Of a stretch of 64,000 nt of DNA, positions 42,318-64,000 are shown piece after piece (the first letter of the stretch is position 1; each line of letters opens with the position of its first letter). The translations under genes were made by a program, and so were the position numbers. The notes beneath the pieces were generated by a model. The model had not been told where the DNA came from. It saw nothing but the letters and a program-made list of their open reading frames with translations, and did no database searches. Origin of the DNA: an uncultured Elusimicrobiaceae bacterium. Its GTDB lineage: Bacteria > Elusimicrobiota > Endomicrobiia > Endomicrobiales > Endomicrobiaceae. Location: NCBI GenBank assembly GCA_964487915.1, contig CAZASN010000005.1, forward strand, positions 13,065 through 77,064, given 5' to 3'.

Positions 42318-43274
42318 ATGGAGGAGAATATATTAAAACCAAAAGTTTCTATTATAGGCTGCGGCAGTGTTGGTATGCGGTATGCTTATGCCTTAATGAT
42401 GAAAGGGATAGCCAGAGAGATCACGCTTGTTGACGTTGATATGAAAAAAGCGGAAGGCGAGGCTATAGATTTATCCCACGGCCTGCCGTATACTGATCCT
42501 GTTAATATTGCTGCAGGAGAATACAAAGATATAGCTGGTTCCGATTTAGTTGTTGTAACAGCCGGTAAAAAGCGGAAGTCCGGGCAAACAAGAGTAGATT
42601 TATTAAAAGATAATATAGATTTGTTTAAGACAATCATTCCGGAAATTATGAAATATGCGCCGGATACGATTTTGCTGATAGTATCCAATCCTGTAGATCT
42701 TTTAACTTACATTACTTATAAAATATCCGGCAAAAAATCTTCTAAAATTATAGGTTCAGGAACTCTTTTAGACACGGCAAGACTTAAAAATGAAATATCA
42801 AAAAACTGCAATATAGATTCAAGAAGTATACATGCTTATATATTAGGGGAACACGGCGACAGCGGATTTCCTGTTTGGAGCAAAGCTGCGGTCGGCGGTA
42901 TAAATATAGAGACATATTGTCTTCTATGTGATAATAAATGTCAATATAAAAAGAAATTGGAAGAAATATTTAACAATGTCAAAACTTCAGGTTCTGCAAT
43001 TATTGCAAGAAAAGGTGAAACTTCATACGGAATAGGCCTTGCTCTTTTAAAAATTACACAGGCCATTCTTAAGAACGAAAACGCTGTTCTTCCGGTATCC
43101 GTATTAATTGAAAATATTTACGGGATAAATGATGTGTATTTAAGTTTACCGGCTGTAATTAATTCAGACGGAGTAAGGCAGGTACAAAACATTGAATTTA
43201 ATGACACGGAAAAGCAGGCATTTTTAAAATCGGCAAATGTTTTAAAACAGTTATTGAAAGAAGTTGGATTTTAA
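42318..43274 (+). CDS. LDH-family 2-hydroxyacid dehydrogenase paralog with Arg at the Gln102-equivalent position (possible LDH-like malate dehydrogenase)
   Basis: Collinear with 41365..42315 and identical at most positions by eye, but the loop reads AGKKRKSGQTRVDLL (CGG at 42573-42575). Confidence 0.7.
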   Translation: MEENILKPKVSIIGCGSVGMRYAYALMMKGIAREITLVDVDMKKAEGEAIDLSHGLPYTDPVNIAAGEYKDIAGSDLVVVTAGKKRKSGQTRVDLLKDNIDLFKTIIPEIMKYAPDTILLIVSNPVDLLTYITYKISGKKSSKIIGSGTLLDTARLKNEISKNCNIDSRSIHAYILGEHGDSGFPVWSKAAVGGINIETYCLLCDNKCQYKKKLEEIFNNVKTSGSAIIARKGETSYGIGLALLKITQAILKNENAVLPVSVLIENIYGINDVYLSLPAVINSDGVRQVQNIEFNDTEKQAFLKSANVLKQLLKEVGF

Positions 43275-43289
43275 ATACGGAGTTTAATC

Positions 43290-43709
43290 ATGAAAACTTA
43301 CAGAAAAGAACTTATATTCAACACGTCAAAACGAATAGAATTTATAAACATAACCGAGCAGGTTCAAGACGCAATAGACGAAAGCGGCGTTAAAGAAGGA
43401 ATTTGTCTTGTTAATGCCATGCATATAACGGCAAGCGTTTTTATAAACGACCACGAATACGGCCTTCACAGTGATTTTGAAAAATGGCTTGAAAAACTTG
43501 CTCCGCACCAGCCTATAAATTATTACCGTCACAATGATACTGGCGAGGACAACGCGGATTCTCATCTTAAAAGACAAATAATGGGAAGAGAAGTTACAGT
43601 TGCAATTACAAACGGCCGGCTGGATTTCGGTCCGTGGGAACAGATATTTTACGGCGAATTTGACGGGATGAGAAGAAAAAGAGTTTTAATAAAAATAATC
43701 GGCGGTTGA
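43290..43709 (+). CDS. yjbQ: YjbQ/UPF0047 family protein (secondary thiamine-phosphate synthase)
   Basis: 139 aa. [20 protein letters not shown] and [12 protein letters not shown] motifs are typical of TIGR00149/YjbQ. Confidence 0.85.
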
Positions 43710-46640: not shown

Positions 46641-47415
46641 TATTTACGTTTTTTCAGGCACGGGCAATACTCTTACAATAGCCAAGAAAATATCTGAAGT
46701 TTTTAATGCGGGCGGTATTAAAGCCGGAGTTCACAGAATTGAAGCTGTTGAACCTGCTGAAATAAATCTTAATTCAACTGTCGGAATAGGCACTACCGTA
46801 GCCTGCTGGAATACGTATCCTATGGTAAAAAAATGGATAAAATCTTTGCCAAAAGCAGACGGCACGGAAGTTTTTCTGTTTGACAGTATGGGAGACAGTT
46901 CTTTGCGCATGCTGGCTTCAGTCGGAAAGGAACTTGAAAAAAAAGGATATAAGATAATAGGTTCAAAAAATTTTGTAATGCCTAATAATTTTTTGCTTGT
47001 TGAACCTGAAGGGAAAAAACAGGAAAAATTAAATAAAACGATTCCTCTTGTTGAGGAATTTGCAAGTTCAATTATTTCAGATAAAGCGGATATTGTAAAA
47101 GGCGGACCGATCTATTCGTTATTTTTTGCGGTTACATCATTTCTCGTAAACACATGGCGGTGGAAATTATCGCAGAAAATGTTCGGGTTTAAAGTTGACG
47201 AAAAACTTTGTACAAAATGCGGATTATGCGCTCAGATATGCCCTAAAAATAATATTACAATAAAAGAATTTCCCGTTTTTAACGGAATGTGCGAAATATG
47301 TTTAAGATGCGTTTCTTTTTGTCCGGCAAAAGCGATATCAAGCAGACTTCTTTATAAAAACAGAACACACAGAGGCGTAACGACCGAGGAGATAAAATGG
47401 AGAAATTCTATTTAG
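46621..47415 (+). CDS. flavodoxin-like plus 2x[4Fe-4S] ferredoxin-domain protein (EFR1-type)
   Basis: N-terminal IYVFSGTGNT flavodoxin-like start. C-terminal CTKCGLCAQICP and CEICLRCVSFCP. ATG 46621 overlaps the mnmG end. Confidence 0.6.
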   Translation: MKVRESDIYVFSGTGNTLTIAKKISEVFNAGGIKAGVHRIEAVEPAEINLNSTVGIGTTVACWNTYPMVKKWIKSLPKADGTEVFLFDSMGDSSLRMLASVGKELEKKGYKIIGSKNFVMPNNFLLVEPEGKKQEKLNKTIPLVEEFASSIISDKADIVKGGPIYSLFFAVTSFLVNTWRWKLSQKMFGFKVDEKLCTKCGLCAQICPKNNITIKEFPVFNGMCEICLRCVSFCPAKAISSRLLYKNRTHRGVTTEEIKWRNSI

Positions 47416-48664: not shown

Positions 48665-49045
48665 ATGAATAAAAGTAAACTTATGATATTACTGGCGTCA
48701 ATTACAACTTTGCTTTTAGGACCGGGAGCCGGTCATTTGATTTTAAAACAATGGAAAAAGGCGCTGTTTTTTATTTCACTTGCGGTTGCTTTATTTGTAA
48801 TTCTTGCCGTTAATTTTATATCCGACGTAGGAAGAGATACGATAATGGCTGTTATAAATTTTCAAGAAACTCAAAGTTTGGAAAAATTCAAAGAGATATA
48901 TTATAAATTCCAGGAATTAAATCCGAAAACGATATTATTTTTTGACATATTTTTTTCTGCGTTGTGGGCGTATTCAATAGTTGATATTTTTATTTCGGCC
49001 GGAAATAAAGATTCCGGCGCAAAAGAAGAAGATAATGAAAATTAA
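48665..49045 (+). CDS. small membrane protein, unknown function
   Basis: 126 aa with 3 hydrophobic segments. GPGAGHLILKQWKK motif. No recognisable family. Confidence 0.45.
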   Translation: MNKSKLMILLASITTLLLGPGAGHLILKQWKKALFFISLAVALFVILAVNFISDVGRDTIMAVINFQETQSLEKFKEIYYKFQELNPKTILFFDIFFSALWAYSIVDIFISAGNKDSGAKEEDNEN

Positions 49046-50333
49046 TATTATAACGATCTGTGTTTTATTATTATTTGTCTGTCAGGGTATAAATGCAGGC
49101 CAGCATAAAGGGGTTGAGCGCATGAAACTTTCAAACGGAGTTACGGCTGTTCTAAAAAAAGATACTTCAGTGCCTGTTGTATCTGTTAACGTATGGGTTA
49201 AAACGGGTTCTATAAACGAAAATCAGAATCAGGCCGGTCTTTCTCATTTTATAGAGCATCTTATGTTTAAAGGCAGCAAAAACTATACGGGCGATTTGAT
49301 GACAAGAAACGTTGAAAAAATGGGCGGGCTTATAAACGCCGCTACGTCAAAAGAATATACTTGTTATTACATAGACATACAAAAAGACGGATGCATTGAG
49401 GCGATTAAAATGCTTGCCGATACGGTTTCAAATCCGTTGTTTCCTTCACAAGAAATAGAGCAGGAAAGAAAAGTGGTCGTTGAAGAAATACAAAGGCATA
49501 AAGACAGTCCGCAGTCTATGCTTTTTGAATATTTTATGGAAACGCTCTATAAAAACAGCGATTACAAAAACAGCATAATAGGTTCGTCTGACGTTATCAA
49601 AAATATACCGAGAGAAGAAATTATTTCATATTATAAAAAACATTACGTTCCGCAGAATATGTTTGTATCCGTAGTCGGCGATTTTGACAAAGAAGAAGTC
49701 ATAAAAACGATAGAAAACGCTTTCGGCAAATTTGAAAACGGAGTTATTCCGGAAGAGCCTGTGATAATTGAGAATTCGGACGCGGTTTCCGATTTTACCG
49801 CAAAAGACAAAACGGTACACACTTATCTTCTTGCCGGATTTAAAGGCCCCGATATGTCATCAGACGATATTTATGTCGCAGACGTTGCTTTAAATATACT
49901 CGGATCCGGAAAATCGTCAAGACTGTACAAAATTTTAAAAGAAGAAAAAAATCTGGTTTTTGCGATAAGTTCTTCTTTTATGACTTTAAGAGGAACAGGC
50001 AGCGCTTTAATATCGGCGGTGTTTGAACCTTCAAAATACGATGAAACGGTCAAAGCGATGGAAACCGAACTTGATAAATTTACAGAATACGGACCTTCGG
50101 AATCGGAACTTAATAAAATTAAAACAAACATAAAATCATCGTGGATTTTCGGCCTTCAGACATTCGGCGAACAGGCCGGACAGCTCGGATACTGGCATTC
50201 TCAGGGACATCCGGACAAATTTGAAAATTATTTAAACAGCATAGACAAAGTCACCGTTGAAGACGTTAAAAATTTCATGAAAAAATATTATTCAAAAGAA
50301 AAACTTGCAAAGGTATCAATATGCCCAAAATAA
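49035..50333 (+). CDS. M16 family zinc peptidase (active subunit), exported
   Basis: Signal peptide from ATG 49035. Inverted zinc motif HFIEHLMFKG (HxxEH) and downstream Glu region. Confidence 0.85.
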   Translation: MKINIITICVLLLFVCQGINAGQHKGVERMKLSNGVTAVLKKDTSVPVVSVNVWVKTGSINENQNQAGLSHFIEHLMFKGSKNYTGDLMTRNVEKMGGLINAATSKEYTCYYIDIQKDGCIEAIKMLADTVSNPLFPSQEIEQERKVVVEEIQRHKDSPQSMLFEYFMETLYKNSDYKNSIIGSSDVIKNIPREEIISYYKKHYVPQNMFVSVVGDFDKEEVIKTIENAFGKFENGVIPEEPVIIENSDAVSDFTAKDKTVHTYLLAGFKGPDMSSDDIYVADVALNILGSGKSSRLYKILKEEKNLVFAISSSFMTLRGTGSALISAVFEPSKYDETVKAMETELDKFTEYGPSESELNKIKTNIKSSWIFGLQTFGEQAGQLGYWHSQGHPDKFENYLNSIDKVTVEDVKNFMKKYYSKEKLAKVSICPK

Positions 50334-51628
50334 TTGCGGGAATTTTATTTTCGGTTTTATTTTACGCATGCGCGTTCGGAGGAACTGTGGAAACATTTAA
50401 TTTAAAAAACGGAATTAAAGTAATATACAAAAAAAGCGATACGGCCGATATTGTAGCTTTAAAAATTTATTCTCCCGTATCGGTGCTAAACGAAGACGTT
50501 TCAAAAGCCGGAGTCACTTCACTGCTTTATAACGTTATGAATAAGTCTACAAAGAAAAGAGACGCTAACAAACTGGCCGAAGATATTGAGAATCTCGGCT
50601 CGTCAATATCAACTGAAGTTGAATATGATTATTCCGGTTTTTCTCTGGCTTCTATGAGCGAAAATTTTGACAAAACGCTTGAAATTCTGGCCGATATTAT
50701 AATAAATCCGGCTTTTGACGACAAAGAAATTGAAAAAGAAAAAATACTAAACGCAGAAATAATAAAAAGCAGGCAGGACAGCATTTCAAAATCCGCCGGC
50801 GATAAATTTATTTATGATTTTTACGGAAATACTCATCCTTATTCATATCCGGTATACGGAAAAGAAGAAACTTTAAACTCACTTACCGGAGCCGATCTTA
50901 TAAAAACATACGGTAAGATTTATTCAAACAAAGATATTATTATAACGGTTGTCGGAAATGTTTCAAAAAAAGAACTTCAAAAATCTCTTGAAAAATATTT
51001 TTCTGATTTGAAATTAACCGGCGTTTATGCAAAACCCGATACCTGTCCGGCATTGAAAAGAACCGGGCAAGACGCAGTTATTGATTCAAAATTCAATCAG
51101 GCTTTTTTGATTTACGCTTATGACGCTCCCGACGTTCACAGCGGAGATTTTGCCGCTTTGAAACTGATAAGTTCTATTCTCGGCGGAAGAATGACGGGCA
51201 GACTTTTTATAGAACTCAGAGAAAAACTCGGACTTGCTTACGAGGTTAATTCCATTTATCCGACAAGAACCGATAAAAGTTATTTTGAAATTTACATAGG
51301 CTTGGATAAAAAGAACATAGAAACCGCAAAAAAAGGAATAGAAAAAATAATTTCCGATTTATGCACTACGCCTGTCAGCGATGAAGAGCTTAAAGACACT
51401 AAAAATTTTATAAAAGGAATTTATCTGCTTGACCACCAGCCCGTTGAAAGGCAGGCTTATTATCTGGGCGTGAGGGAAATTCTCGGTTTAGGATATAAAT
51501 ATGACGACGAATATATTTCTGTTTTGGAAAAAGTATCTTCACGGGATATAATTGACGTTTCAAACAAATATTTCAAAAATACGCCGTATAAACTTGTAAT
51601 GACGCCGCAAAACGGAGAAACAAAATAA
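50321..51628 (+). CDS. M16 family peptidase-like protein lacking HxxEH (non-catalytic partner)
   Basis: Collinear M16 fold. The position of HxxEH reads TSLLYNVMNK. Overlaps the upstream M16 gene. Confidence 0.75.
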   Translation: MPKIIAGILFSVLFYACAFGGTVETFNLKNGIKVIYKKSDTADIVALKIYSPVSVLNEDVSKAGVTSLLYNVMNKSTKKRDANKLAEDIENLGSSISTEVEYDYSGFSLASMSENFDKTLEILADIIINPAFDDKEIEKEKILNAEIIKSRQDSISKSAGDKFIYDFYGNTHPYSYPVYGKEETLNSLTGADLIKTYGKIYSNKDIIITVVGNVSKKELQKSLEKYFSDLKLTGVYAKPDTCPALKRTGQDAVIDSKFNQAFLIYAYDAPDVHSGDFAALKLISSILGGRMTGRLFIELREKLGLAYEVNSIYPTRTDKSYFEIYIGLDKKNIETAKKGIEKIISDLCTTPVSDEELKDTKNFIKGIYLLDHQPVERQAYYLGVREILGLGYKYDDEYISVLEKVSSRDIIDVSNKYFKNTPYKLVMTPQNGETK

Positions 51629-52866
51629 TGAATGCGTATCTTATTATCATAATAATATTTTTGGCGGCGTCTTTTCTTGCAGGTTTTATAACGGATTATC
51701 TTAATATTAAAAACATATCGGGTATTCTGCCCGATGAATTTAAAGGATATTACGACGAAGAAAAATATAAAAAATCGCAGAATTATTTAAAAGACAATAC
51801 AATTTTCGGCTTTATAAATTCTTTTGCTATTTTTATTATTGAAATAATTTTTATAATTGCCGGCGGTTTTAATTTTACGGATAAATTTGCAAGATCTTTC
51901 GGATACGGAGAAATTGTTTCCGGCCTCATATTCGTTGCGGTTCTTATCGTATTGTTCAATATAATAAAAATTCCTTTTTCCTTGTATAATATTTTCGTAA
52001 TAGAAGAAAAATACGGATTTAACAGAATGACCGTTAAAACGTTTGTCGCTGATTTGATAAAAAATAACATTCTTATTCTTTTGATAGGGCTTCCTTTATT
52101 CGGGATTATAGTCTGTTTTTTTACGTTTTACGGCAGCCAGGCATGGCTTTATGCGGCGCTGACAGTAATTATATTTGAACTTGTCATGCTTTTTATCGCT
52201 CCGGTTTTGATAATGCCTCTTTTTAACAAATACGTGCCTATAGAAGACGGAGAACTAAAGACCGAACTTGAAAATTACGCAAAACGCGAAAATTTTAAAA
52301 TGAAAGGTCTGTTTAAAATGGACGGTTCAAAAAGATCATCAAAAACAAACGCGTTTTTTACCGGTTTTGGCAGATTCAGAAGAATAGTTTTGTTTGATAC
52401 TCTCATAGCCAAACATACGGTTCCCGAACTGGTTTCAGTTCTTGCCCATGAAATGGGGCATTATAAAAAAGGACATATAAAAAAATTTGTGATAATGTCT
52501 TTTTTGAATACTTTTATAATGTTTTTTATTCTTTCGTTTTTTGTGTCAAACGAAGGATTGTTTGAAGCCTTTTCAATGGAAACGGTTTCCATATACGCAT
52601 CGCTGGTGTTTTTCGGATTTCTGTATACGCCGATATCAATGTTTTTATCTGTAATTCAGAATATTGTTTCAAGAAAATACGAATATGAAGCCGACAGATA
52701 CGCAGTTGAAACTTATAAAAAACCGGAAGCGATGACCGAAGCGCTTAAGAAACTTTCGGTAGACAATCTTTCAAATCTTACGCCTCATAAATTGAAAGTT
52801 TTTATGGAATATTCGCATCCGCCTGTTCTTGAAAGAATAAAAGCTATTAAAAATATTAAAATATAA
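51628..52866 (+). CDS. Ste24-type (M48A) integral-membrane zinc metalloprotease
   Basis: 412 aa with about 7 TM. Long N-terminal membrane domain (YDEEKYKKSQNYLKD..), HEMGHYKKGH (HExxH), C-terminal SHPPVLERI. Confidence 0.8.
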   Translation: MNAYLIIIIIFLAASFLAGFITDYLNIKNISGILPDEFKGYYDEEKYKKSQNYLKDNTIFGFINSFAIFIIEIIFIIAGGFNFTDKFARSFGYGEIVSGLIFVAVLIVLFNIIKIPFSLYNIFVIEEKYGFNRMTVKTFVADLIKNNILILLIGLPLFGIIVCFFTFYGSQAWLYAALTVIIFELVMLFIAPVLIMPLFNKYVPIEDGELKTELENYAKRENFKMKGLFKMDGSKRSSKTNAFFTGFGRFRRIVLFDTLIAKHTVPELVSVLAHEMGHYKKGHIKKFVIMSFLNTFIMFFILSFFVSNEGLFEAFSMETVSIYASLVFFGFLYTPISMFLSVIQNIVSRKYEYEADRYAVETYKKPEAMTEALKKLSVDNLSNLTPHKLKVFMEYSHPPVLERIKAIKNIKI

Positions 52867-52882
52867 TTAAACGGGGGATAAA

Positions 52883-53914
52883 ATGGATAAATTGTTAAAA
52901 GATTTGCTGAATGCGCCCGGAATATCGGGTTATGAAGAAACTGTTGCCGAAATTATCAAAAAAGAACTTGAAAAATGCTGCGACAGCGTTAAAATAGACA
53001 ATTTTGGAAATGTCATATCAAAAAAAGGAACAGGCAAAAAAAAGATTATGATTGCGGCTCATATGGATGAAATAGGTCTTGCCGTTAAATACGTAAATGA
53101 CCAGGGATATATTTATTTTATAAAAGTAGGCGGAATTTCGGACGGCGTTTTACCGGGACAGAGAGTCATTATAAAGTCTCAAAAGGGTGACGTTTACGGC
53201 ATAATAGGAACAAAACCTCCTCATCTTCAGACTCCTGATGAAAGAAACAAAGTTGTTTCTTATGACAACATGTTTATAGATATCGGCTGTTCAAAAAAAG
53301 AAGATGTTTTTGCCAAGATAGAAATAGGCGATCAGATAATATTTGAACCAAACGCCGGAGTTCTTAACGGCGATATTTGTTACGGAAAAGCCGTAGACAA
53401 CAGAGCCGGCTGCTATGCTATGATAAAAATTATGGAGAAACTTTCCGTAAACGCAGAGGTTTACGGAGTTGCCACAGCTCAGGAAGAGGTAGGGCTAAAA
53501 GGAGCCAAAACGTCTTCTTTTGCCGTAAATCCGGATTTTGCATTGATAGTAGACACAACAACGGCGGGAGATGTTCCCGGAATAGAAGGGAAAGTTTCTT
53601 CATTAAAACTCGGAGATGGGATAGCAATTACCATTATTGAGGCAAGCGGAAGAGGAACAATTGTAAATAATAAAATAAGAAAGATGATGATTGAGGCCGC
53701 AAAAGAAAACAACATAAAACACCAGATTGACGTTATAGACGGCGGCATGACGGACGGCGCGACGATTTATATAAACAGAGAGGGGATTCTTACCGGTATT
53801 TTAAGTCTGCCGACAAGGTATCTGCATGCTTCAAGTTCTGTTTTTAATATGAAAGATTTGGATGCGGCTGTTGAGCTGGGGATTAAGACGATAGAAAAAT
53901 TCGTTAAGTTATAA
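52883..53914 (+). CDS. M42 family aminopeptidase (FrvX/PepA-like)
   Basis: LLNAPGISGYEE, AHMDEIGL, AVDNRAG, QEEVGLKGA motifs. Confidence 0.85.
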   Translation: MDKLLKDLLNAPGISGYEETVAEIIKKELEKCCDSVKIDNFGNVISKKGTGKKKIMIAAHMDEIGLAVKYVNDQGYIYFIKVGGISDGVLPGQRVIIKSQKGDVYGIIGTKPPHLQTPDERNKVVSYDNMFIDIGCSKKEDVFAKIEIGDQIIFEPNAGVLNGDICYGKAVDNRAGCYAMIKIMEKLSVNAEVYGVATAQEEVGLKGAKTSSFAVNPDFALIVDTTTAGDVPGIEGKVSSLKLGDGIAITIIEASGRGTIVNNKIRKMMIEAAKENNIKHQIDVIDGGMTDGATIYINREGILTGILSLPTRYLHASSSVFNMKDLDAAVELGIKTIEKFVKL

Positions 53915-54090: not shown

Positions 54091-54813
54091 TTACAGTTCA
54101 GTGCGGGCGACGGCGGCGACAAATACTTTTTTTGCTCCTGATTTTTTAAGAAGCTCGGCGCAGACGTTTGCCGTTGCGCATGTCGTTGCAACGTCGTCTA
54201 TCAGAAGAATATTTTTGCCTTTTAAAAAAGATTCGTGTTTTTTGTTTATTGAAAAAGAATTTTGAAGGTTAGCATTTCTGTCTTTTCTGTTTAGTCCGAA
54301 CTGCGGTTTGGTGTAAGAACTTCGCATAAGAATATTTTCATATAAAGGTTTTTTAATAATTTTTGATATTTCGGCCGCAAGAAGAGCCGTTTGATTGTAT
54401 CCTCTCGTGAATTTTTTTATGAAATGAAGAGGAACGGGAATTATCATATCAGTTTCCTTATCCCAGTTTTCTTTTATTATTAAATCGGAGACGGGTTTTG
54501 ACAAATCCTTCGCAAGAAACAGTCTGTTTGAATATTTAAAACTATGTATCAGTTTTTTTATTTTTCCGGTATATACGTAAGGAGTTTTTAAAAAATTAAA
54601 ATATATTTTTGAATGTCTGCAGTCATAACAATGCTCGCCGCCGTCTTTTAAGGGCATTGAACATACAACGCATTTCAAACCGTCATTTTTAGCAAGAGAT
54701 TTTAAGCATGTTTCGCATATATTGTTAACCGTATTTACGGGCATATTCCGCCCGCAGCAGGCGCAAGTTCTCGGGAAAATAAAATAAATTAAGAGATTAA
54801 AAATATTTATCAT
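54091..54813 (-). CDS. comF: ComF family protein (ComFC-like, zinc-ribbon plus phosphoribosyltransferase domain)
   Basis: N-terminal Cys pairs (CACCG, CETC, CVVC, CYDC) and C-terminal PRTase motif ILLIDDVATTCAT. Confidence 0.8.
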   Translation of the reverse strand: MINIFNLLIYFIFPRTCACCGRNMPVNTVNNICETCLKSLAKNDGLKCVVCSMPLKDGGEHCYDCRHSKIYFNFLKTPYVYTGKIKKLIHSFKYSNRLFLAKDLSKPVSDLIIKENWDKETDMIIPVPLHFIKKFTRGYNQTALLAAEISKIIKKPLYENILMRSSYTKPQFGLNRKDRNANLQNSFSINKKHESFLKGKNILLIDDVATTCATANVCAELLKKSGAKKVFVAAVARTEL

Positions 54814-54825
54814 ATCTTATGTCCG

Positions 54826-57800
54826 TCAGAATTGTATCGTCAGTCTGCTTCCGAATTCAATTAACGTATAATTTTCGTCAGGCACATAAGTGTATACGTA
54901 TCTTGATATGCCTGCAATCAAAGCGCATCTGAAATTACCGGAAATTTCATAATCGGCATTTACTTTGAACCCGTAATTTTGCAGATTATTGCTCTGTATG
55001 TTAACTCCCGAACTCTGCGTTTTATAAAATACGTTTGAATCAAAAATAAGCCTATTTTTTAGAGGTATTGTGCCGAATAACGGCAGTTTTATTCCGGCCG
55101 GAAACATCATGTCGGAATTAACCTGTCCGACAATTGAATTCGTAAATATCTGGGTTGAAAGTTTGCCTGTTGAATTTCTTGCCCATTCCTGAGAGTTTTC
55201 ATATTTTAAGCTCATTCTCCACTGTTTTACGTTTATTCCGCTTTGCAGCAGCCATGAAAAAATCTGCCCTTCGCTTATAGGCACATTTTTTGCGATATCG
55301 GTTTCGTTTGAATTTGTGTTTGACGCTCCGAAAAGCAGATCAAGTTTTTTTAATAATTTAAATCTGTAATCTCCTCCGAAAGTAGTGCTTTCCGCAAAAG
55401 AAATGAATTTTTCAATTACGGTTTTTTTATTGTGTCTGAGATTTAACTGCGTGTCGCTCATCCAGCTTATGTCAAAGAGATTTTCAAATTTGCTCATGCC
55501 TATAAGAAGATCCGGCCATATTCTCGTATATGAATCTTTATATGTTCCCGTTATGTATGATTCTTCCTGACCTTCGGTAAAAGTAAAATTTAAAGACATC
55601 GTTTTTACAGGCATAAGCGTTTTAGACAGATTTAATGTTTCAAAAGGGCTGTATCTTCCGATTATTCTTCTGTCGTCTCTTTGCACTACCGATTTGACGA
55701 TATAAGAAGATGTTGATGAAATTATATCTTTAAGCATATTGTTTCTTATCCATAACTTATCCATGCCTATTGAAGAAAAGTCTTTTTCCATGTTTGAATA
55801 TGCGTCGGAGTCCTGCATTCTGTAAGATGTCGTGAAAGATAAAGATTTTAAGCAGGACGCGTTTACTATGTCTATAACCTGAAGATTCCAAGTAAGTTCG
55901 GTTGTTCCCAGTCTTTCAATATATTTTGTCTGTCCGGGATAAATTATATTTGTTGTTTGAGTGCTGTAAGTCAGGTCATAAGTTTCTTTTGTGTTTATAT
56001 GATAAATAACGCTGGGCTGGAACCATTTTGCAACCTGAAAATTTAAACTGGCTCCAACGTCCTGGTTTAAAGATTTGTCATAATATATTTCATGGTCAAA
56101 GTATTCTTTATTTTTTTCGTTTACTTTGCTCAAAATATAAGTCGGTGAAAAAGTAACGCTGTCAAAAAATTTAAAAGGCGTTTTTAAACCCCATGTTTCT
56201 GTTTTTTCAAGCGTCAGGAAATCTTTGATGTCCAAATATTTTTTTGCAGTATCAAGATCCAAAAATGAATTTGAATCTGTAATCGGGGTATCCGGATATT
56301 TTTTAAAAGCGGAATTTACCAGTCTGTAATCGCCGGTTAAATTTGTAGGAAGAAGTTCAAATTCTATTGGATTTGTATACGTTAAATTTGCATAAACGCT
56401 TTCGGCGTCCTCAAGCCGTTCTATTTCCTGAGTGTCTTTTAAGGCTCTTGCATATTGAAGAGTAACGCGCGGCGTATCTTGCCCGGCATACAGAACCGTT
56501 TCGGCCTTGCTGTTGTAAGATATAACAGTTCCTTCGTCCAATATGGATACTTTATCGGATTCGTTCTGAATGGCAAGAGGCGTTATTGTTTTTAATTTTG
56601 ATATGGAAGCATTCAGCGGAAGAACGTCAATTCCGTTTACCGACAAACCTTTAAATCCGAGAGATGCCGTATCTTCAAGATAATCACGGTTATATGTTCC
56701 CGGCGCAAACGTCTGAAAATTTTTATCTATGCTTTTTCTGCTTAAAGCCAGACTTACGGGCCCGACAAAGTCGGTTCCGTTCCATCTCAGATTCGTATTT
56801 ACTTTCCATGCGTTTCCGTCTTTGCTTTTTGCTCCCGTGACGTGAATTTCGTTTATCCATACTTCTCCGCTGTCTGCCTGGTTTGTTTTTACGCCGGTTT
56901 GCAGATAAGCTATTTTTTCAAGAGAAGGATTTCCCACGATAGTTACGGTGCCGCTGTCGGTGCTTATCCATTTTGACGCTACCGAGCTGTATTCCTGCCT
57001 TATTGTAATAAGAGTCCATTTTCCTTTCAGATTATCGGTCATAGGTATGGAATATTGCAGATAGTTATTTTCATCGGCTCCTGCTCTCATTATTATTTCG
57101 CTTGCCGTAGAAGCGGTTGTAGAAGCTACATATATAAAAAATCTGAAGTTATCATAAATTGAAATATCTATGCCGTTTCCGTAATATGTAGTTTTTGCAT
57201 AGAATTGGTCATCCGAAGAATTTGAATCGTATACTAATCTTAAAGACTGTTCGTCAACAACCACGTTTCCGCTTAATTCGTACAAATCTCTGTAATCCTG
57301 ATTGCTTAATAATGATATGTAATTCGGATCGTCGCGGCCGATGGAAGATGTTTCAAAATCGCTTAAAGAATTGCTTTTGCTTGCAGTCCATTTATTTCCT
57401 ATGATTGAGACTTTTCCTATTGTGATTGTCCCTTCTGCTCCGCTTGTATTGTTTAAAGTCAGTCTGGCGACTTTTATGCTTCTCCACTTATCCTGATCCG
57501 CTTCGGTTTCAATATTTAGCGGTATTTGCACTTTTTTCCAGCCTGTCCAGTTTACGTTTACCGCGAAACTGCTGACGTTAAGCTCATATCTGTCCAGAAT
57601 ATTATTGCCGTTTAAGTCTTCCGTATCTATTTTGCCGTTGTGCGGACCTATTTTTGAAACGCCCAGATATGTGTCGTAATTGTAAAAATCTCTTCCGATA
57701 TCTTCCCAAGAAGTCAGCAGTCCGTCGCCGTCTTTATCTTCTGTATGAGGGGAAGTTTTTACGGAACCGTCTTCAAGAACCTGTCCGTACATTCCGTCGG

Positions 57801-60177
57801 AGTCTTCATTTATGGATGTTGCGTAATCAAGTTGCAGAGTAGTATTTTTGCCGTCGCCTTTTATCCACATTTCAATATAAAGTTTGCTTGAAAAATCGTT
57901 TCCCGCGGCATTTACAATCTGTACTATTGACGCCGTCGGCCGGCTCAGAAGATTATAATTTATTTCCATAACCTGCTGTTTTTCTCCGGAAATTATTTCC
58001 AAATTCGGATCTATTTCTCTTTTTTCAACGTCGTATGTTTTCCACGAAAGAGAATTGGTGTTGTAACGGCTGCCGTCGGGAGTTGAAGAATAAAACCATG
58101 TGTCGTATACCATTGACAGGCTGCTTTCCTGTTTTGCGCCTTCCATTGATTCAATAATGGCTTTTCCGGTAGTGTTAGACTGGAATTTGCTTAAAGCGTA
58201 TTCGGCTCCTGCCGATAATGAAAGAGAATCAGAAAGCCGGATATTGTTTATTTTTGTATCAACTTCACCGACTAGCGAACTTGACGGCGTATTATATAAA
58301 TCCGGCAGGACAGTATCTTTTGCGGAAAATTCATATATAAAACTGCCTCCGACAGACAGTCTGCTGTCAAAATCATACTGGCTTCTGAAACCGACAAGAG
58401 TAGACCCGCTTGAACTTGATCCGAAGGGGGAATAATCGTAGGAAACGTCAATTACGGAATTTTCATTTATCAGGCTTTCTTTTAGAATAGTAAGAATTCC
58501 CAGATCATAATCTATGAAATAATCTTCGTTTATTTTTAAAGTGACGCCGTCCAAAATAACTTTTTCAGACATTGGCACTATGCCGGATCTGAGAGTAAAT
58601 ATCTTTACTTTGTATCTGTATTCAGTTATAAAATTATATAAATGCGTGCCGGATGTGTACAAACTGTCGTGCAGAGGAAGAGTATTGTCCGGATTTTTAG
58701 GCTCTACTGGAGAAAGATTGAATATTCCGTTTTCAAAATCTACGATAATATTGCTCGTACCGTTTGGAATATTCGGATACTGAGGAACAGGCTTGTTGCC
58801 CGGATTTATTATTGAAGGAATATTATTGTTTAAATCTTTTATCTGGAGAATAAAATTGCCTCTTCCGTCATCTCTTGTTATCTGGTAGTTGCCCAGACTG
58901 TAATAAGTCAGCAGTTCTGTCGTCATCATATCCGTGCTTCTGGTATTGTTTGTGTCTTTTATAAGCTGCGGATTTCCGCCTGTCGTATCGGATAACCATG
59001 TTCCGTCTGAAAATTGATAATCAACGGCGACTATATATTGAGCGGATAACGTGTTTTTAAACATCAAAACGCCGGTATTGTAATCAAGAGTATAATCCTG
59101 TCCGGCCGTTAATTTAACAAAATTACCTCTGTATTCAAATGAAGATGTCGGATTTCTCATTGATTTAAGCACTGTATTTGTTGATATTACGATGTAATCC
59201 GACGCCTGCACTTTTGTTTTGTCAAGATAAACTTTTAAAGTGCCTTGTCTTATAGCTTTAGGGTTATTCGGATCCTGTACGACCGAATAGTATTTGTAAC
59301 GGATGTATGAGGTATCGGCTATAGTAAGTTTTTCAAGTTTTGTGTTGCCTTTAAACTGTTTGCTTTCGGAGTATCCTTTTGTTTTTGAGAAAAAAGCTTT
59401 GGTTGAAAGCCCTTTATATTTTGTATCAAGTTTAACGCCGAACAATTCTTTTGAATATCCGGTAAATTCCGTGCTTGGCAATGCTACGGTTATGTCTCCG
59501 AATGCCGCCTCCTGTACGAATTCATCGGGATATCCTTTGTAAACTATTGAAATATCTTTTTTGTCCGTATATGTGTCGTCATAGTCAATATTAAGAGTCA
59601 GGCGGTCGCTGACCGTTCCTTTAATTTTCATCTGCAATTCCTGATCCATTGAAAATGACGATAAATTTGATCTTTTGCCGGCTTCCGGTTTATCGTATAT
59701 TGTGGAATTATAAGTAATTCCTATGACTTTTCTTCCGGTTAAAAGCAGTTTTGACTCCAACGGTAAAGTCGTATAATATTCCGAAGAAAGTATTGAAGGT
59801 TTATCTTTAACGGTTGTTGTGCTTGCCGATATTTTTTCAATGGCTTTGCTTCCTGAAACAGCGGCAGCCGTTGTTGTTGGGACATTAACGTTATATACGG
59901 CTGTTTGGGTTGATTTTTCAATGATTGCTCCTGACTGGTAATAAGTTCCGACCGTATCCATAGCGGAGTCATTTACCGATATCGGTATTGATTTTTTATC
60001 CGGGTTTGTGGTATCGGGATTTTCAATAATATCGGCGTCATTCATATTTGTTACCGATACGGTTTCGGTTGAAATACTGACGGTATCGGATGATATTGCA
60101 ATATCATCCGCGCGCAGCATATAGAGCGGATATAAAAACAATAACGATAATAACAAATATAATTTTTTCATCGGCAA
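54826..60177 (-). CDS. giant outer-membrane beta-barrel protein, SprA/Sov-like (type IX secretion translocon family), compact form
   Basis: 1783 aa. Signal peptide and C-terminal ..RLTIQF. Blocks QELQMKIKGTVSDRLTLNIDYDD, FGDITVALPS..KELFGVKLDTKY, YIEMWIKGDG, RAGADENNYLQYSIPM and GEVWINEIHVTG resemble remembered SprA conserved blocks. Not HMM-verified. Confidence 0.55.
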   Translation of the reverse strand: MPMKKLYLLLSLLFLYPLYMLRADDIAISSDTVSISTETVSVTNMNDADIIENPDTTNPDKKSIPISVNDSAMDTVGTYYQSGAIIEKSTQTAVYNVNVPTTTAAAVSGSKAIEKISASTTTVKDKPSILSSEYYTTLPLESKLLLTGRKVIGITYNSTIYDKPEAGKRSNLSSFSMDQELQMKIKGTVSDRLTLNIDYDDTYTDKKDISIVYKGYPDEFVQEAAFGDITVALPSTEFTGYSKELFGVKLDTKYKGLSTKAFFSKTKGYSESKQFKGNTKLEKLTIADTSYIRYKYYSVVQDPNNPKAIRQGTLKVYLDKTKVQASDYIVISTNTVLKSMRNPTSSFEYRGNFVKLTAGQDYTLDYNTGVLMFKNTLSAQYIVAVDYQFSDGTWLSDTTGGNPQLIKDTNNTRSTDMMTTELLTYYSLGNYQITRDDGRGNFILQIKDLNNNIPSIINPGNKPVPQYPNIPNGTSNIIVDFENGIFNLSPVEPKNPDNTLPLHDSLYTSGTHLYNFITEYRYKVKIFTLRSGIVPMSEKVILDGVTLKINEDYFIDYDLGILTILKESLINENSVIDVSYDYSPFGSSSSGSTLVGFRSQYDFDSRLSVGGSFIYEFSAKDTVLPDLYNTPSSSLVGEVDTKINNIRLSDSLSLSAGAEYALSKFQSNTTGKAIIESMEGAKQESSLSMVYDTWFYSSTPDGSRYNTNSLSWKTYDVEKREIDPNLEIISGEKQQVMEINYNLLSRPTASIVQIVNAAGNDFSSKLYIEMWIKGDGKNTTLQLDYATSINEDSDGMYGQVLEDGSVKTSPHTEDKDGDGLLTSWEDIGRDFYNYDTYLGVSKIGPHNGKIDTEDLNGNNILDRYELNVSSFAVNVNWTGWKKVQIPLNIETEADQDKWRSIKVARLTLNNTSGAEGTITIGKVSIIGNKWTASKSNSLSDFETSSIGRDDPNYISLLSNQDYRDLYELSGNVVVDEQSLRLVYDSNSSDDQFYAKTTYYGNGIDISIYDNFRFFIYVASTTASTASEIIMRAGADENNYLQYSIPMTDNLKGKWTLITIRQEYSSVASKWISTDSGTVTIVGNPSLEKIAYLQTGVKTNQADSGEVWINEIHVTGAKSKDGNAWKVNTNLRWNGTDFVGPVSLALSRKSIDKNFQTFAPGTYNRDYLEDTASLGFKGLSVNGIDVLPLNASISKLKTITPLAIQNESDKVSILDEGTVISYNSKAETVLYAGQDTPRVTLQYARALKDTQEIERLEDAESVYANLTYTNPIEFELLPTNLTGDYRLVNSAFKKYPDTPITDSNSFLDLDTAKKYLDIKDFLTLEKTETWGLKTPFKFFDSVTFSPTYILSKVNEKNKEYFDHEIYYDKSLNQDVGASLNFQVAKWFQPSVIYHINTKETYDLTYSTQTTNIIYPGQTKYIERLGTTELTWNLQVIDIVNASCLKSLSFTTSYRMQDSDAYSNMEKDFSSIGMDKLWIRNNMLKDIISSTSSYIVKSVVQRDDRRIIGRYSPFETLNLSKTLMPVKTMSLNFTFTEGQEESYITGTYKDSYTRIWPDLLIGMSKFENLFDISWMSDTQLNLRHNKKTVIEKFISFAESTTFGGDYRFKLLKKLDLLFGASNTNSNETDIAKNVPISEGQIFSWLLQSGINVKQWRMSLKYENSQEWARNSTGKLSTQIFTNSIVGQVNSDMMFPAGIKLPLFGTIPLKNRLIFDSNVFYKTQSSGVNIQSNNLQNYGFKVNADYEISGNFRCALIAGISRYVYTYVPDENYTLIEFGSRLTIQF

Positions 60178-60183: not shown

Positions 60184-61788
60184 TTAATCTTTTAGGTATG
60201 AGGCGTATTTTATATTTTTTTTGTCAACATACCATTGGCGAAAATTCCAGCCTATCCCAGCAGGCGCAAGTTCAACGCCTTTAAATCTTTTGTGAACGGC
60301 AACCATATTATCCGGATAATATAAAAATATGCAGGGAGGATCTTCACGCATAATATCCTGAATTTTATGATACATTTTTATTCTTTCGTTTTTGTTAAAA
60401 GAGCCTCTGGCTTTGATTAACAGTTTGTCAACTTCATTGTTTTTATAAGACATAAAATTATATTGCCCTTTTTGAGTTTGTTCGGAATGCCAAAGCGAAT
60501 ATTGGTCAGGGTCTACGGCTGTACTCCAGCCGAGTATCAGCGCGTCAAAATTTTTTTCGTTTACGTATTGATTTATAAACGTACTCCATTCCAAAATGCG
60601 TATGTTGATTTTTAAACCTATTTGTTTAAGCTGTTCCTGAATTATCTGGGCGGATAATTCTCTGGCTTTGTTTCCCTGATGCGTTATAACCGTTATTTCA
60701 AACGGCGTGTTATTGTAATATAAGTATCCGTCTTTACCGGAAGAAAAACCTATTTCTTTCAAAAGAGCCAGCGCTTTGCCGGGATTATATTCGTAAGACT
60801 CTATTTTTTTATATGCCCAGGAATTCGGCGGGAATATTCCGGTCGCTTCTTTTGCCATTCCCGAAAATATTCCTTCAATAATATCTTTTTTGTTTAAGGC
60901 GTAATTAATTGCCTGCCTGAATTTTATATTTTTAAAAGGTTCTTTTTGAAGATTAAATCCCAGAAACGTAAAACTGAACGACGGATATCTATACTTGTCA
61001 TAGTGCTTAAAAAATACGTTATAGGCGTTCCACTGGTCTGTCGTAAGCGATATTTGGTCAATGCTTTCATTTCTTAGTTCCAGAAACTGTACTGCTTGGT
61101 CCGGAATTATTCTGAACAGACATGCCGCTATTTTGGGTTTTCCTTCAAAATAATCGGGATTTGCCTTTAATTCTATTTTTTGGTCTGTTTTCCATTGTTT
61201 AAAAATATAAGGTCCGGTTCCGACGGGCTGTCTGTTATATTTTGACGTATTGATATCTTCGTTTTTAAACAAATGTTCCGGAATTATTCCTATACCCCAG
61301 CTTTCAAGTATCGGGGCAAAAGGTTTATCGTAAGAGACGGAAAAAGAGTAATCGTCAAGAATATTGAATTTTTTGACCAAAAGATAATCTGACGAAAAAG
61401 GCGTTCTGGTTTGAGGATCAATTAATTTTTTATAAGTAAATTCAACGTCTTTTGACGTAAAAGGAACTCCGTCGTGCCATTTTATGTTTTTTTTGATTTT
61501 AAATAAAACCGTAAGTCCGTTGTCCGTTATTTTAAAACTTTCCGCCAAATCGCACACAAGATTTAAATCTTTATCATATTTTAAAAGACCGTTAAATATA
61601 AAAGCGTTGATTTCGGCGGAAGAAGTATCGGCCGCAAGCAGAGGATTCAAATAGGAAGCGTCTCCGTTTAAACTTGTGACAAACATATCGCCGTTATTTT
61701 GATTAAGAGAAGTTTTTGAACCCGAACAAGAAAAAATAAAAAGCAAAATAAATATGAATATTGCGTTTTTATTCAGGTTAAAATTCAC
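60184..61788 (-). CDS. family-5 (Opp/Dpp/Nik-type) ABC substrate-binding lipoprotein, no cognate permease genes adjacent
   Basis: 534 aa. Lipobox-like LFIFSCSG. Collinear with peptide/nickel substrate-binding proteins (LNPLLA.D..S, WHDG.PFTS.DV.FT, VGTGPY.F..W). Confidence 0.8.
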   Translation of the reverse strand: MNFNLNKNAIFIFILLFIFSCSGSKTSLNQNNGDMFVTSLNGDASYLNPLLAADTSSAEINAFIFNGLLKYDKDLNLVCDLAESFKITDNGLTVLFKIKKNIKWHDGVPFTSKDVEFTYKKLIDPQTRTPFSSDYLLVKKFNILDDYSFSVSYDKPFAPILESWGIGIIPEHLFKNEDINTSKYNRQPVGTGPYIFKQWKTDQKIELKANPDYFEGKPKIAACLFRIIPDQAVQFLELRNESIDQISLTTDQWNAYNVFFKHYDKYRYPSFSFTFLGFNLQKEPFKNIKFRQAINYALNKKDIIEGIFSGMAKEATGIFPPNSWAYKKIESYEYNPGKALALLKEIGFSSGKDGYLYYNNTPFEITVITHQGNKARELSAQIIQEQLKQIGLKINIRILEWSTFINQYVNEKNFDALILGWSTAVDPDQYSLWHSEQTQKGQYNFMSYKNNEVDKLLIKARGSFNKNERIKMYHKIQDIMREDPPCIFLYYPDNMVAVHKRFKGVELAPAGIGWNFRQWYVDKKNIKYASYLKD

Positions 61789-63068
61789 TTTCTGTTCCCG
61801 TCATAATCATAGCCTTGAGATTGGATAAATTTTTTATTTTTTTGAGTCATTTGATTAGGATAAATATTTGCGACTTTTTGCGCCGTCTGAATGAGAGATC
61901 CGGCGTTGCCGTCTATATGATTTCTTGCGATACTCAGCATTTCTGCGGCTTCGTCAACTTTATTGCAGGCTTTCGTAAAATTAATTAAAAAATTATTGAA
62001 TTCGACAACAAGTTTATTCGCGTTTTCTTTAATGCTTTCAATTTCATCAGACTGTATTTTAAGATCCCATAATTTTACTATCATATTGATCGTATTTATA
62101 AGCGAGGTTGCAGAGACCAAAGCGACTTTTTTCTTCCATGCGGTTACCGTTAAATCCGGTTCTTCCTGGCATGCGGCTGTAAGCGCGCTTTCGGGATTTA
62201 CAAACATCAGAGTAAAGTCAGGTTCTACAAGTTCGCTTGTTTCCTGCAATTTTTCGGGATATTTTTTTCCGCTTAGATCGTCTATGATTTCTTTAATTTG
62301 TTTAATATGTTTTTTAAGATATTCCTGTTTTTCTTTATAGTCGGATTTATTTATATAATTTTGGTAATCAATAAATATTGTTTTCGCGTCAATTACTATG
62401 GTGTTGCCGGAAGGGAGTTTTATCATTATATCAGTTCGTTTATTGTCTTTCTGCTGCGTTTGTATAAAAAGATTTTTGCCGATAATAAGCCCGGAATTTT
62501 TCAGTATTTCAATTAGAGTTTCTTCACCCCAGAATCCGCGAACTACCGATTCGCCTTTTATAGCGTTTGCAAGCTGCGCCGCTCCGGCGCTTACGTCGTT
62601 TGTTCTTGCCACGAGATTTTCAAGTTTTTCTTTTAAGATGCCTTCTCTGACGGTATCCTGTTTTACGAATTCCGACACCTGTTTTTGAAAATCCTCAATA
62701 TTTGAACGCACGGGTTTTAAAATATTTGTCAGCGATTCTTCATTTGCGGATTTTATTTTCTCCCGGGTTTCTTCAAAAATTTTATTGGTTAAATTTTCAA
62801 AATTAATTTTATTTTGTTCATGGATTTTTTCAAGATCTGTTTTATATTTTTCAAGATGCTCTTTTTCAACCGTAATCTGTTTGTTAATCAGTTCAAATTC
62901 TTTATTTTGAGATGAAAGTTCTTCAATTTTTGCGTTAAGAGCTTTTATTGATTCTTCTTTCTTTGTCAGTTCATTTTTTATAAATGAAATATCGTTTCTC
63001 TTGGAAGCAATAAGAAACCCGACGGTTACTCCGAGCAGCGCAAAAATTGCCGTAAGTATAAATTCCAT
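61785..63068 (-). CDS. rmuC: DNA recombination protein RmuC
   Basis: N-terminal TM, long coiled coil, and C-terminal nuclease-like region (WGEETLIEILKNSGL, TDIMIKLP..IVIDAKT) typical of RmuC. Confidence 0.85.
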   Translation of the reverse strand: MEFILTAIFALLGVTVGFLIASKRNDISFIKNELTKKEESIKALNAKIEELSSQNKEFELINKQITVEKEHLEKYKTDLEKIHEQNKINFENLTNKIFEETREKIKSANEESLTNILKPVRSNIEDFQKQVSEFVKQDTVREGILKEKLENLVARTNDVSAGAAQLANAIKGESVVRGFWGEETLIEILKNSGLIIGKNLFIQTQQKDNKRTDIMIKLPSGNTIVIDAKTIFIDYQNYINKSDYKEKQEYLKKHIKQIKEIIDDLSGKKYPEKLQETSELVEPDFTLMFVNPESALTAACQEEPDLTVTAWKKKVALVSATSLINTINMIVKLWDLKIQSDEIESIKENANKLVVEFNNFLINFTKACNKVDEAAEMLSIARNHIDGNAGSLIQTAQKVANIYPNQMTQKNKKFIQSQGYDYDGNRK

Positions 63069-63070
63069 AA

Positions 63071-63415
63071 TTAATCCAGATTTTTCCAGTATTTTTTGCC
63101 GCGTTTCAGCAGATCGGCGCTTGCTCCGTCGTTTGAAAGATGAGGTTTGTATTCGTTGCCCATTTCATTCATTACTTTTTTATAATTTTTGTTTGAATAA
63201 ATGGACTCGTTGTAATCTTTTATAAGCGGAAGGTTATTAAACCAGACTTTAAAAGAGTTCCATTCCGCTTTTACGGCGGCTATTGTCGCGGCAACGCGTT
63301 CATTTTTCATAAAATTATCGTACATATCTCTTACTTTTTTAAAACTAGTGTCTTCTGCATACAGCGATGAAGAAAAAAAACATAAAGTTACAACAAGCAA
63401 TAAAATTTTTTTCAT
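63071..63415 (-). CDS. small secreted protein, unknown function
   Basis: 114 aa. Signal peptide MKKILLLVVTLCFFSSSLYA/ED. No recognisable family. Confidence 0.5.
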   Translation of the reverse strand: MKKILLLVVTLCFFSSSLYAEDTSFKKVRDMYDNFMKNERVAATIAAVKAEWNSFKVWFNNLPLIKDYNESIYSNKNYKKVMNEMGNEYKPHLSNDGASADLLKRGKKYWKNLD

Positions 63416-63428
63416 ACAGTATGTCTCC

Positions 63429-64000
63429 TTAAATTTTCAGCTTTTCTACTTCATTTTTAAAGCCCGCATCTATATTAAAGCCTTTTTTAACCGATTTTTC
63501 CATATCTGCTTTGGCATTTGCGTAATTGCCGAGCATCAAATGCGCGGCCGAACGTTTAAAATAATATTCTCCGTTCTCTTCAGTAAGCAGTATCGCCATT
63601 GTATAATATGCCAGAGCGCGTTGATATTTATGTTTTAGCGCATAAATATTGCCCAAAAAGAAATAACCCTGGTGATTGTTCGGATGATCCGCTATTGTCG
63701 CGATAAAAACCTGTTCGGCGTTTTTTAAATCATCTTTTTTAAAATATTCCGAACCTAGATAATTTAGTATGTTCATTGAGTTTTCTATACCGAGATTTTC
63801 AATGCCTTTAAAAGCTGTATTTTCAAAATCTTCAAAATCTTTTAATTTTTCATAGCAAACCATGTTAAACAGATAATATTGTTCATTATAAGGATTAAGA
63901 GCAATTGCTTTTTGCAAATATTCTATAACAGTATGAATATCCGCGTTGTCTCTTGAAAAATAAAAAGATGCGAGAGTGCTGTTGATTAAATCGGCGTTAT
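63429..64000 (-). CDS. TPR-repeat protein, 5' end outside the window
   Basis: The minus-strand frame stays open from 63917 to the window end (no stop). TPR-like repeats (A..Y...A......G.Y..A). The ORF-track start at 63917 is only a TTG. Confidence 0.6.
   Translation of the reverse strand, partial: NADLINSTLASFYFSRDNADIHTVIEYLQKAIALNPYNEQYYLFNMVCYEKLKDFEDFENTAFKGIENLGIENSMNILNYLGSEYFKKDDLKNAEQVFIATIADHPNNHQGYFFLGNIYALKHKYQRALAYYTMAILLTEENGEYYFKRSAAHLMLGNYANAKADMEKSVKKGFNIDAGFKNEVEKLKI

Follow-up and report, generated by a model that had tools for sequence, protein, structure and literature searches.

A compact SprA-like gene and its predicted fold

We analysed a 64 kb stretch (64,000 nucleotides, hereafter the window) of contig CAZASN010000005.1 from an uncultured Elusimicrobiaceae bacterium, in which one open reading frame (ORF) encodes a protein resembling SprA/Sov, the giant outer-membrane barrel in type 9 secretion systems (T9SS). 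Translation and the ORF list showed that this ORF (54826-60177, reverse strand) starts with TTG, encodes 1783 amino acids (aa) and is the longest in the window, as a preliminary description of the stretch had stated. The same description had assigned the product a signal peptide and an aromatic outer-membrane protein (OMP) ending; read by eye rather than by a predictor, the N-terminus (MPMKKLYLLLSLLFLYPLYMLRA/DD) resembles a Sec signal peptide, and the C-terminus reads ..RLTIQF. The motifs that had been quoted from the protein are all present in the translation (QELQMKIKGTVSDRLTLNIDYDD, FGDITVALPS, KELFGVKLDTKYKGL, FFSKTKG, YIEMWIKGDG, RAGADENNYLQYSIPM and GEVWINEIHVTG). The gene and its parts are laid out as follows.

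54826-60177, reverse strand: gene for the SprA-like giant outer-membrane barrel, 1783 aa; the coordinates include the stop codon
60109-60177, reverse strand: putative Sec signal peptide, aa 1-23, MPMKKLYLLLSLLFLYPLYMLRA, read by eye from the translation
59773-60108, reverse strand: Ser/Thr-rich low-complexity N-terminal stretch, aa ~24-135, poorly conserved, delimited by composition
59272-59721, reverse strand: conserved N-terminal SprA block, aa ~153-302, holding the first group of previously quoted motifs
58336-58575 (approximate), reverse strand: second SprA-homologous block, aa ~535-614, with a DYFIDYDxG motif
56575-57747 (approximate), reverse strand: central SprA-homologous block, aa ~811-1201, with a beta-sandwich insert resembling a carbohydrate-binding module (CBM) and the motif GEVWINEIHV
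54835-56871, reverse strand: C-terminal series of 28 long beta-strands, aa 1103-1781, to the aromatic OMP terminus ..RLTIQF, from DSSP of the model

The protein matched TIGR04189, the NCBIfam equivalog model of SprA, with an E-value of 8.4e-47 (159.2 bits over five stretches). A single-sequence phmmer search of the 1783-aa protein against the PDB returned nothing, and SprA was recovered by the family profile alone: a profile of 41 homologues aligned to Flavobacterium johnsoniae SprA (6H3I/6H3J, 2403 aa) with an E-value of 4e-38 in three collinear blocks (profile/SprA positions 142-261/149-267, 509-588/699-778 and 812-1173/1158-1598). The first of these blocks, in which many residues are invariant, also gave the best stretch of the TIGR04189 match (aa 153-302 against model positions 108-259). 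In the second, D552, Y553, D556 and G560 are invariant, and the central block scored 86.6 bits and gave local Foldseek matches to CBM11 and CBM22. The profile-to-PDB alignment pairs the family motif GEiWvNEihv with GEVWFNELRLA of F. johnsoniae SprA, and RaGnd..Yfeysip with RFGNDFTQNFYQVEIPL; the GEVWINEIHV and RAGADENNY motifs of the window protein fall inside the SprA-aligned blocks. The likeness of these motifs to SprA/Sov that the preliminary description had noted is true homology.

Outside these blocks, the low-complexity stretch behind the signal peptide contains 17 Ser, 16 Thr and 12 Ile per 110 residues, and the family consensus there reads 'x', while L1779 and F1783 at the C-terminus are invariant across the family in the 41-homologue alignment. 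The protein had been described as several hundred residues shorter than canonical SprA, and alignment offsets indicate that the ~620 residues it lacks are distributed across four regions (~190, 156, 79 and 215 aa) rather than lost as one domain. Its length lies outside the ~2300-2500 aa typical of SprA, and full-length members of its family measure ~1670-1900 aa. An exact-sequence database look-up of the 1783-aa protein returned no record, and scanning for promoters and terminators gave no useful information, as the promoter counts matched those expected by chance. A 111-aa ORF on the forward strand (58100-58435) lies antisense inside the gene and is most likely spurious.

The structure was predicted with AlphaFold from the family alignment as two overlapping halves, aa 131-1200 and aa 600-1783, which reached a pLDDT of 80.5 and 85.2, respectively. 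When these half-models were searched with Foldseek against the PDB, the top four matches were SprA chains for both, with E-values of 2e-39 to 9e-31 in one case and 6e-49 to 5e-34 in the other (TMq 0.40-0.57), making SprA the best structural match of each half. The next, unrelated matches had E-values of ~1e-6 to 1e-7, with LptD and TonB-dependent barrels at ~1e-4. DSSP assigned ~43 long strands overall, 28 of them contiguous at the C-terminus, and this predicted strand pattern is compatible with a SprA-class barrel. The structural comparison that the preliminary description had proposed thus returned SprA first for both half-models.

Taken together, these data indicate that the giant gene is a true but shortened and diverged relative of SprA (F. 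johnsoniae; 6H3I, 6H3J, 8GL6, 8GL8) and Sov (Porphyromonas gingivalis). It has in common with them a putative Sec signal and the aromatic OMP terminus, and differs from them in its host, which belongs to the Elusimicrobiota and lies outside the Fibrobacterota-Chlorobiota-Bacteroidota (FCB) superphylum.

Distribution and gene neighbourhood

The window is ~96-97% identical to Candidatus Proruminimicrobium quisquiliarum, an Endomicrobiaceae lineage of anaerobic digesters. A protein search returned 144 homologues, of which 120 were listed and are the basis for our statements on organism and length; among these 120, every organism-named homologue belongs to the Elusimicrobiota, save one labelled just 'bacterium'. 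A genome scan found 440 relatives, and the best 78 of these 440 represent essentially one locus per genome; they come from rumen and termite lineages, among them Endomicrobiellum endosymbionts with reduced genomes, and extend to Elusimicrobia of groundwater that are 30% identical. When 1.8 billion cluster representatives were searched exhaustively, 1029 relatives emerged, which form a length continuum of ~1550-2500 aa, with Candidatus Firestonebacteria among the few that are named. No long SprA paralogue was present among the Elusimicrobiota matches of the protein search and the genome scan, and the compact form of SprA (~1670-1900 aa) appears to occur in one copy per genome throughout this phylum.

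Recent papers describe the T9SS as specific to Bacteroidota or the FCB group (PMC10994853) and call SprA FCB-specific (PMC12611786), and our literature search found nothing on T9SS or SprA in Elusimicrobia. The named SprA-like loci depart from this restriction, since they fall in Elusimicrobiota, one Firestonebacteria and one metagenome-assembled genome labelled Ignavibacteria. The compact SprA family thus appears to belong to the core genes of a non-FCB phylum, although T9SS and SprA are treated as Bacteroidota/FCB-specific. The Ignavibacteria-labelled genome (L044, JBGFRZ010000060.1) carries an Endomicrobiales-type locus, with lptFG, a SprA-like gene (35% identity), ComF, GAPDH and PGK; its label may reflect mis-binning, mislabelling or a real transfer.

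We called and clustered the ORFs of 79 loci (labelled L0xx), and give neighbour counts over the 73 of them that hold a SprA-like gene. In the window, the SprA-like gene is flanked by the following genes.

54091-54813, reverse strand: ComF/GntX-family gene (double zinc ribbon and phosphoribosyltransferase), 12 nt downstream of the SprA-like gene
60184-61788, reverse strand: gene for a family 5 solute-binding protein, 6 nt upstream of the SprA-like gene (Pfam SBP_bac_5, E-value 4e-93)
61785-63068, reverse strand: RmuC gene
63071-63415, reverse strand: 114-aa ORF
63429-64000, reverse strand: 3' end of the gene for a 698-aa tetratricopeptide repeat (TPR) protein

The ComF gene matched Pfam DZR_2 and Pribosyltran as well as TIGR00201 (comF, E-value 2e-33). 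A ComF/GntX gene accompanies 53 of the 73 loci phylum-wide, mostly downstream on the strand of the SprA-like gene, and lptF-lptG lie divergently upstream of the SprA-like gene in 40 of the 73, again across the phylum. This conserved operon partner and the divergent lptFG pair distinguish the gene from SprA/Sov, and we know of no link between ComF and type 9 secretion. The window's own clade has a same-strand TPR protein, 114-aa ORF, RmuC and family 5 solute-binding protein in place of lptFG. The string upstream of the solute-binding gene (61785-64000, reverse strand) has intergenic gaps of at most 13 nt, its TPR gene being cut by the window edge, and the solute-binding gene (cluster 3) occurs in 15 loci and is a neighbour only in the ruminant/digester clade. 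The 698-aa TPR protein was considered as a SprE/PorW analogue, but it gave generic TPR matches and none to PorW/SprE. Likewise, genes beyond lptFG that were considered for a role in lipopolysaccharide (LPS) proved to be cobalt-transport and nickel-cofactor genes. Directly beside the ComF gene, on the forward strand, lie four peptidase genes (48981-53914): two M16 insulinase-type, one M48 CAAX-type and one M42 aminopeptidase.

PorV-like and sorting-domain genes beyond the window edge

Position 64000 of the window aligns with position 6172 in L080 and 6178 in L002, sister contigs that are colinear with the window at 96% nucleotide identity. A PorV homologue and an M6 protease gene with a C-terminal sorting domain (CTD) lie 2.5-5.3 kb past that position in these contigs.

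L080 2745-3638: PorV homologue (cluster 27), a 297-aa barrel, 6.4 kb upstream of the SprA-like gene
L080 839-2734 and L002 848-2740: M6 metalloprotease, 631 aa, with signal peptide, HELTH motif (HExxH intact) and C-terminal sorting domain

According to the preliminary description, no T9SS genes lie near the giant gene and no protein of the window carries an obvious sorting domain. The latter point was borne out by a six-frame sorting-domain scan of the whole window, which found nothing significant. The former held for the window ORFs that were scanned against families (~3/4 of the ORFs of at least 120 aa, those of 17687-20793, 39400-43709, 46594-47415 and 48665-49045 falling outside the scan), but failed just past the edge, where the sister contigs carry the PorV and M6-CTD genes; the apparent lack of T9SS neighbours arose because the window ends at 64000. 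Since T9SS genes are scattered in Bacteroidota genomes, such a lack is non-diagnostic anyway.

The 297-aa barrel of L080 and L002 matched T9SS_PorQ (E-value 1.5e-26), PorV_fam (86.8 bits) and PorV (E-value 1e-8). Cluster 27, the family to which it belongs, matches NF033709, NF033711 and NF033710; the copy in the window's lineage falls just below the PorV_fam cutoff (86.8 vs 90 bits), whereas the member in L067 exceeds it (115 bits). A profile of six members aligned over nearly its full length to F. johnsoniae PorV (6h3i_F) with an E-value of 5.2e-22; this six-sequence profile was required, as a single PorV-like sequence reached PorV with an E-value of only 0.25. At 297-306 aa, the cluster 27 barrels fall ~100 aa short of F. 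johnsoniae PorV (402 aa). In Bacteroidota, porV adjoins porU, and cluster 27 similarly adjoins genes for CTD proteins, as seen in L002-L004, L070, L078 and L080.

The sorting domains exceeded the TIGR04183 (type A) cutoff of 23 bits in L002 (848-2740, 32.5 bits), L070 (26.9 bits) and L078 (24.7 bits), and the match of the M6 protease to Pfam Por_Secre_tail was faint. Their C-terminal pattern is K-x-A/V-hydrophobic-hydrophobic-R, and 12 of 13 have Lys at position -6, reminiscent of the Lys that is almost invariant at the C-terminus of type A CTDs (PMC10994853). A homologue search with a 100-aa sorting domain returned one fragment only. We also considered the M6 protease as a PorU or PorZ homologue and rejected this assignment, since its matches to the PorU and PorZ models cover the shared sorting domain only.

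Across the phylum, a PorV-family gene lies no more than 10 kb from the SprA-like gene in 22 of the 73 loci and a CTD gene in 14, with either present in 25, a linkage that should be far above chance for single genes in genomes of 1-3 Mb. PorV-family and CTD genes occur near the SprA-like gene in at least four arrangements. The order in environmental Endomicrobiales is TPR lipoprotein, PorV-like barrel, M6-CTD, lptGF (opposite strand), SprA-like gene and ComF; in L070, the M6-CTD gene is followed by the PorV homologue, and in L078 a 1447-aa CTD protein adjoins a PorV homologue. Six Endomicrobiellum loci carry a 583-aa PorV-family gene directly upstream of the SprA-like gene on the same strand. 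A conserved 390-aa protein with no family match (~6690-7870) precedes the 583-aa PorV-family and SprA-like genes in L027, L029, L032, L037, L042 and L043. A further trait shared with SprA/Sov is the setting, which in the sister contigs includes a PorV homologue and CTD proteins of type A.

Two further PorV-like clusters, 12 and 38 (400-585 aa), form divergent subfamilies whose role is uncertain. All 25 members of cluster 12 (~400-520 aa) matched PorV_fam below its cutoff (best E-value 3e-19) and 2 of the 25 gave weak BamG matches (best E-value 8e-7), while a cluster 12 profile found nothing significant in the PDB. Its genes are always preceded by one for a small TPR lipoprotein with weak BamD matches (E-value 2e-5), and the two could be helpers of the BAM type (BAM being the machinery for beta-barrel assembly) rather than carriers. 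A small TPR lipoprotein and a FadL/PorV-like barrel also close the Tad/Flp operons of L081, L028 and L034, and the TPR-barrel pair is present in the FCB bacterium Salisaeta longa as well (L085 8970-11239). These Tad/Flp operons (L081 3860-11434, L028 15073-22443 and L034 15088-22448; Flp or TadE, RcpC, TadA, TadB and TadC) contain no secretin gene.

A type 9-like reading, its rivals and other genes of the window

The locus is probably best read as a module for protein export by SprA, PorV and CTD that lies outside the FCB superphylum, and we regard the gene as a compact and new form of T9SS translocon beyond FCB, with carrier and cargo genes nearby in sister contigs. The preliminary description had left the choice between a minimal or diverged translocon and a SprA-fold barrel used for something else; homology and predicted fold favour the former, in a compact and diverged form, and a use other than a T9SS-like role is less likely. 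In F. johnsoniae, the CTD binds PorV loops in the SprA pore, and the pair leaves through the lateral opening (PMC10994853). Judging from the homologous SprA-PorV structures of F. johnsoniae, from which we infer the transport function itself, Sec-exported proteins with a C-terminal type A sorting domain would enter the giant barrel at its periplasmic mouth, where the CTD would be bound by the loops of a PorV-family carrier barrel docked at the lateral opening of SprA, and the carrier-cargo pair would then exit sideways to the cell surface. The M6 metalloprotease may be a conserved client and the flagship cargo of such a module. One could also speculate that it stands in for the processing protease/sortase PorU, because a CTD-bearing protease travels with PorV here as porU does in Bacteroidota.

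Several observations weigh against reading the locus as such a module. The profile comparison that had been suggested for the giant protein succeeded only in part: the TIGR04189 match is significant, but its 159.2 bits fall short of the curated whole-protein cutoff of 200, and a Pfam search of the 1783-aa protein returned no matches at an E-value of 1 or below, SprA_N (PF14349) included. Of the 120 listed homologues, 15 carry a precomputed PF14349 match, and all 15 belong to the more distant part of the list. The protein is short (1783 vs 2403 aa in F. johnsoniae), and with half-models as its structural basis, barrel closure, the count of 36 strands, the cap and the lateral opening fall outside what the models support. 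The strongest syntenic partners phylum-wide, ComF and lptFG, have no known T9SS role, and the evidence for PorV and CTD genes comes from sister contigs rather than from the window's own sequence. Cluster 12 is ambiguous, given its pairing with a TPR lipoprotein, its place at the ends of Tad operons and its weak BamG/BamD-like matches. Finally, no GldK, GldL, GldM, GldN, PorU, PorZ, SprE/PorW, Plug or peptidyl-prolyl isomerase was found in the family-scanned window ORFs and neighbour families, and no C25 peptidase was present among the scanned neighbours, these scans having covered a minority of the ~1100 ORFs in 1.6 Mb of Elusimicrobiota sequence.

A narrower version of this reading is a minimal type 9-like pathway limited to compact SprA, a carrier of the PorV family and cargo with a CTD, in which the M6 protease would take the place of PorU and GldLM/GldKN would be dispensed with. 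We consider this doubtful. Ejection of the carrier-cargo complex in Bacteroidota needs energy (PMC10994853), and if the motor and hub are truly missing, the family would reveal what a minimal translocon needs and what other ways there are to energise carrier release. If true, the pathway would be an ancestral T9SS core or a stripped-down derivative, kept even in endosymbiont genomes of ~1 Mb. A bolder and speculative extension is that the same barrel might also be the outer-membrane exit for LPS.

Other roles for the barrel have to be set against this type 9-like reading. A SprA-fold barrel with a different outer-membrane role, for which the PorV-like and TPR genes would be BamG/BamD-like helpers in assembling the giant barrel itself, would fit the retention of the gene in reduced endosymbiont genomes, the weak BamG matches of cluster 12 and weak BamD matches of the TPR lipoprotein, the proposal that BamG and BamH help build complex OMPs such as SprA in Bacteroidota (PMC12611786), and the reported absence of BamBCD in Endomicrobiaceae (PMC11257099). 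However, cluster 27 is a clear PorV homologue (E-value 5e-22) that adjoins CTD proteins, cluster 12 proteins could act as helpers of a barrel that is itself a translocon, and no domain points to an alternative function, all of which makes this account unlikely. Less probable still is that the barrel is a functional substitute for LptD that inserts LPS through its lateral opening. Like LptD, it would be a large single-chain barrel with a lateral gate, paired with lptFG (divergent beside the gene in 40 of the 73 loci), in a family in which LptD, BamBCD and FadL are reported absent from all members while LPS synthesis is present (PMC11257099). The window encodes kdsB-kdsA-kdsC-lptC-lptA-lptB, and an Lpt bridge needs an outer-membrane acceptor, and the opening of SprA to the outer leaflet is known (PMC10994853). 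On the other hand, the reported absence of LptD is annotation-based, so that a divergent LptD may exist, and the SprA-like protein has no OstA/LptA-like jellyroll domain and no LptD Pfam match (zero Pfam matches, PF03968 and PF04453 included). Phmmer searches with the window's LptA and LptC against its N-terminal 700 aa found nothing, and Foldseek placed LptD and LptDE at the level of generic barrels (E-value ~1e-4, TM 0.14-0.18), against 1e-39 or better for SprA. Moreover, the window's clade and six Endomicrobiellum loci have lost the adjacency to lptFG but kept the gene, and a role in LPS insertion would leave the linkage to PorV and CTD genes unexplained.

The most improbable of the alternatives is a conduit for a pilus or DNA uptake, in which the barrel would take the place of a secretin. 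The ComF/GntX gene, of a family implicated in DNA utilisation, lies 12 nt downstream in the window and recurs in 53 of the 73 loci, and in five Endomicrobium/Endomicrobiellum loci ComF is followed by a Tad/Flp operon (TadE, RcpC, TadA, TadB and TadC) with no secretin gene there. Yet ComF proteins are cytoplasmic, the Tad linkage is limited to one clade, and the Tad operon of L081 stands away from any SprA-like gene. The protein has no Secretin domain in Pfam and no secretin among its Foldseek matches, and the SprA fold is capped outside and opens laterally (PMC10994853), which makes it ill suited to a fibre.

The discovery of this gene also bears on two gaps in Endomicrobiaceae, which are reported to have no recognisable LptD and no BamBCD (PMC11257099): the conserved neighbours of the SprA-like gene, namely lptFG, the TPR lipoprotein and the FadL/PorV-like barrels, are candidates for filling them. 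In addition, the smaller protein could be an easier structural target.

The remainder of the window holds several other features. A string of LPS precursor and transport genes (30895-37154, forward strand) comprises heptose epimerase and kinase-like genes, kdsB, kdsA, kdsC, lptC, lptA and lptB. Two cobalamin riboswitches (17533-17699 and 20881-21012) lie in the region 15622-21012 on the reverse strand, one preceding a BtuB-like TonB-dependent receptor (15622-17442) and the other a four-gene string (17687-20793, reverse strand) that resembles an operon for B12/ABC uptake. Two membrane proteins of ~345 aa (4159-5199 and 10675-11709, both reverse strand) are paralogues with long motifs in common, such as GFRYT...YVF.GCS..(Y/F)G, and no Pfam match, and a protein of the TIGR03545 family, whose function is unknown, is encoded at 6368-8185 (forward strand). 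Also on the forward strand are a cluster of three tRNA genes (Leu, Gly and Ala; 15127-15488), a resistance-nodulation-division (RND) efflux permease (24081-27263) and a tandem pair of very similar ~317-aa genes (41365-43274), which by eye resemble lactate/malate dehydrogenases.

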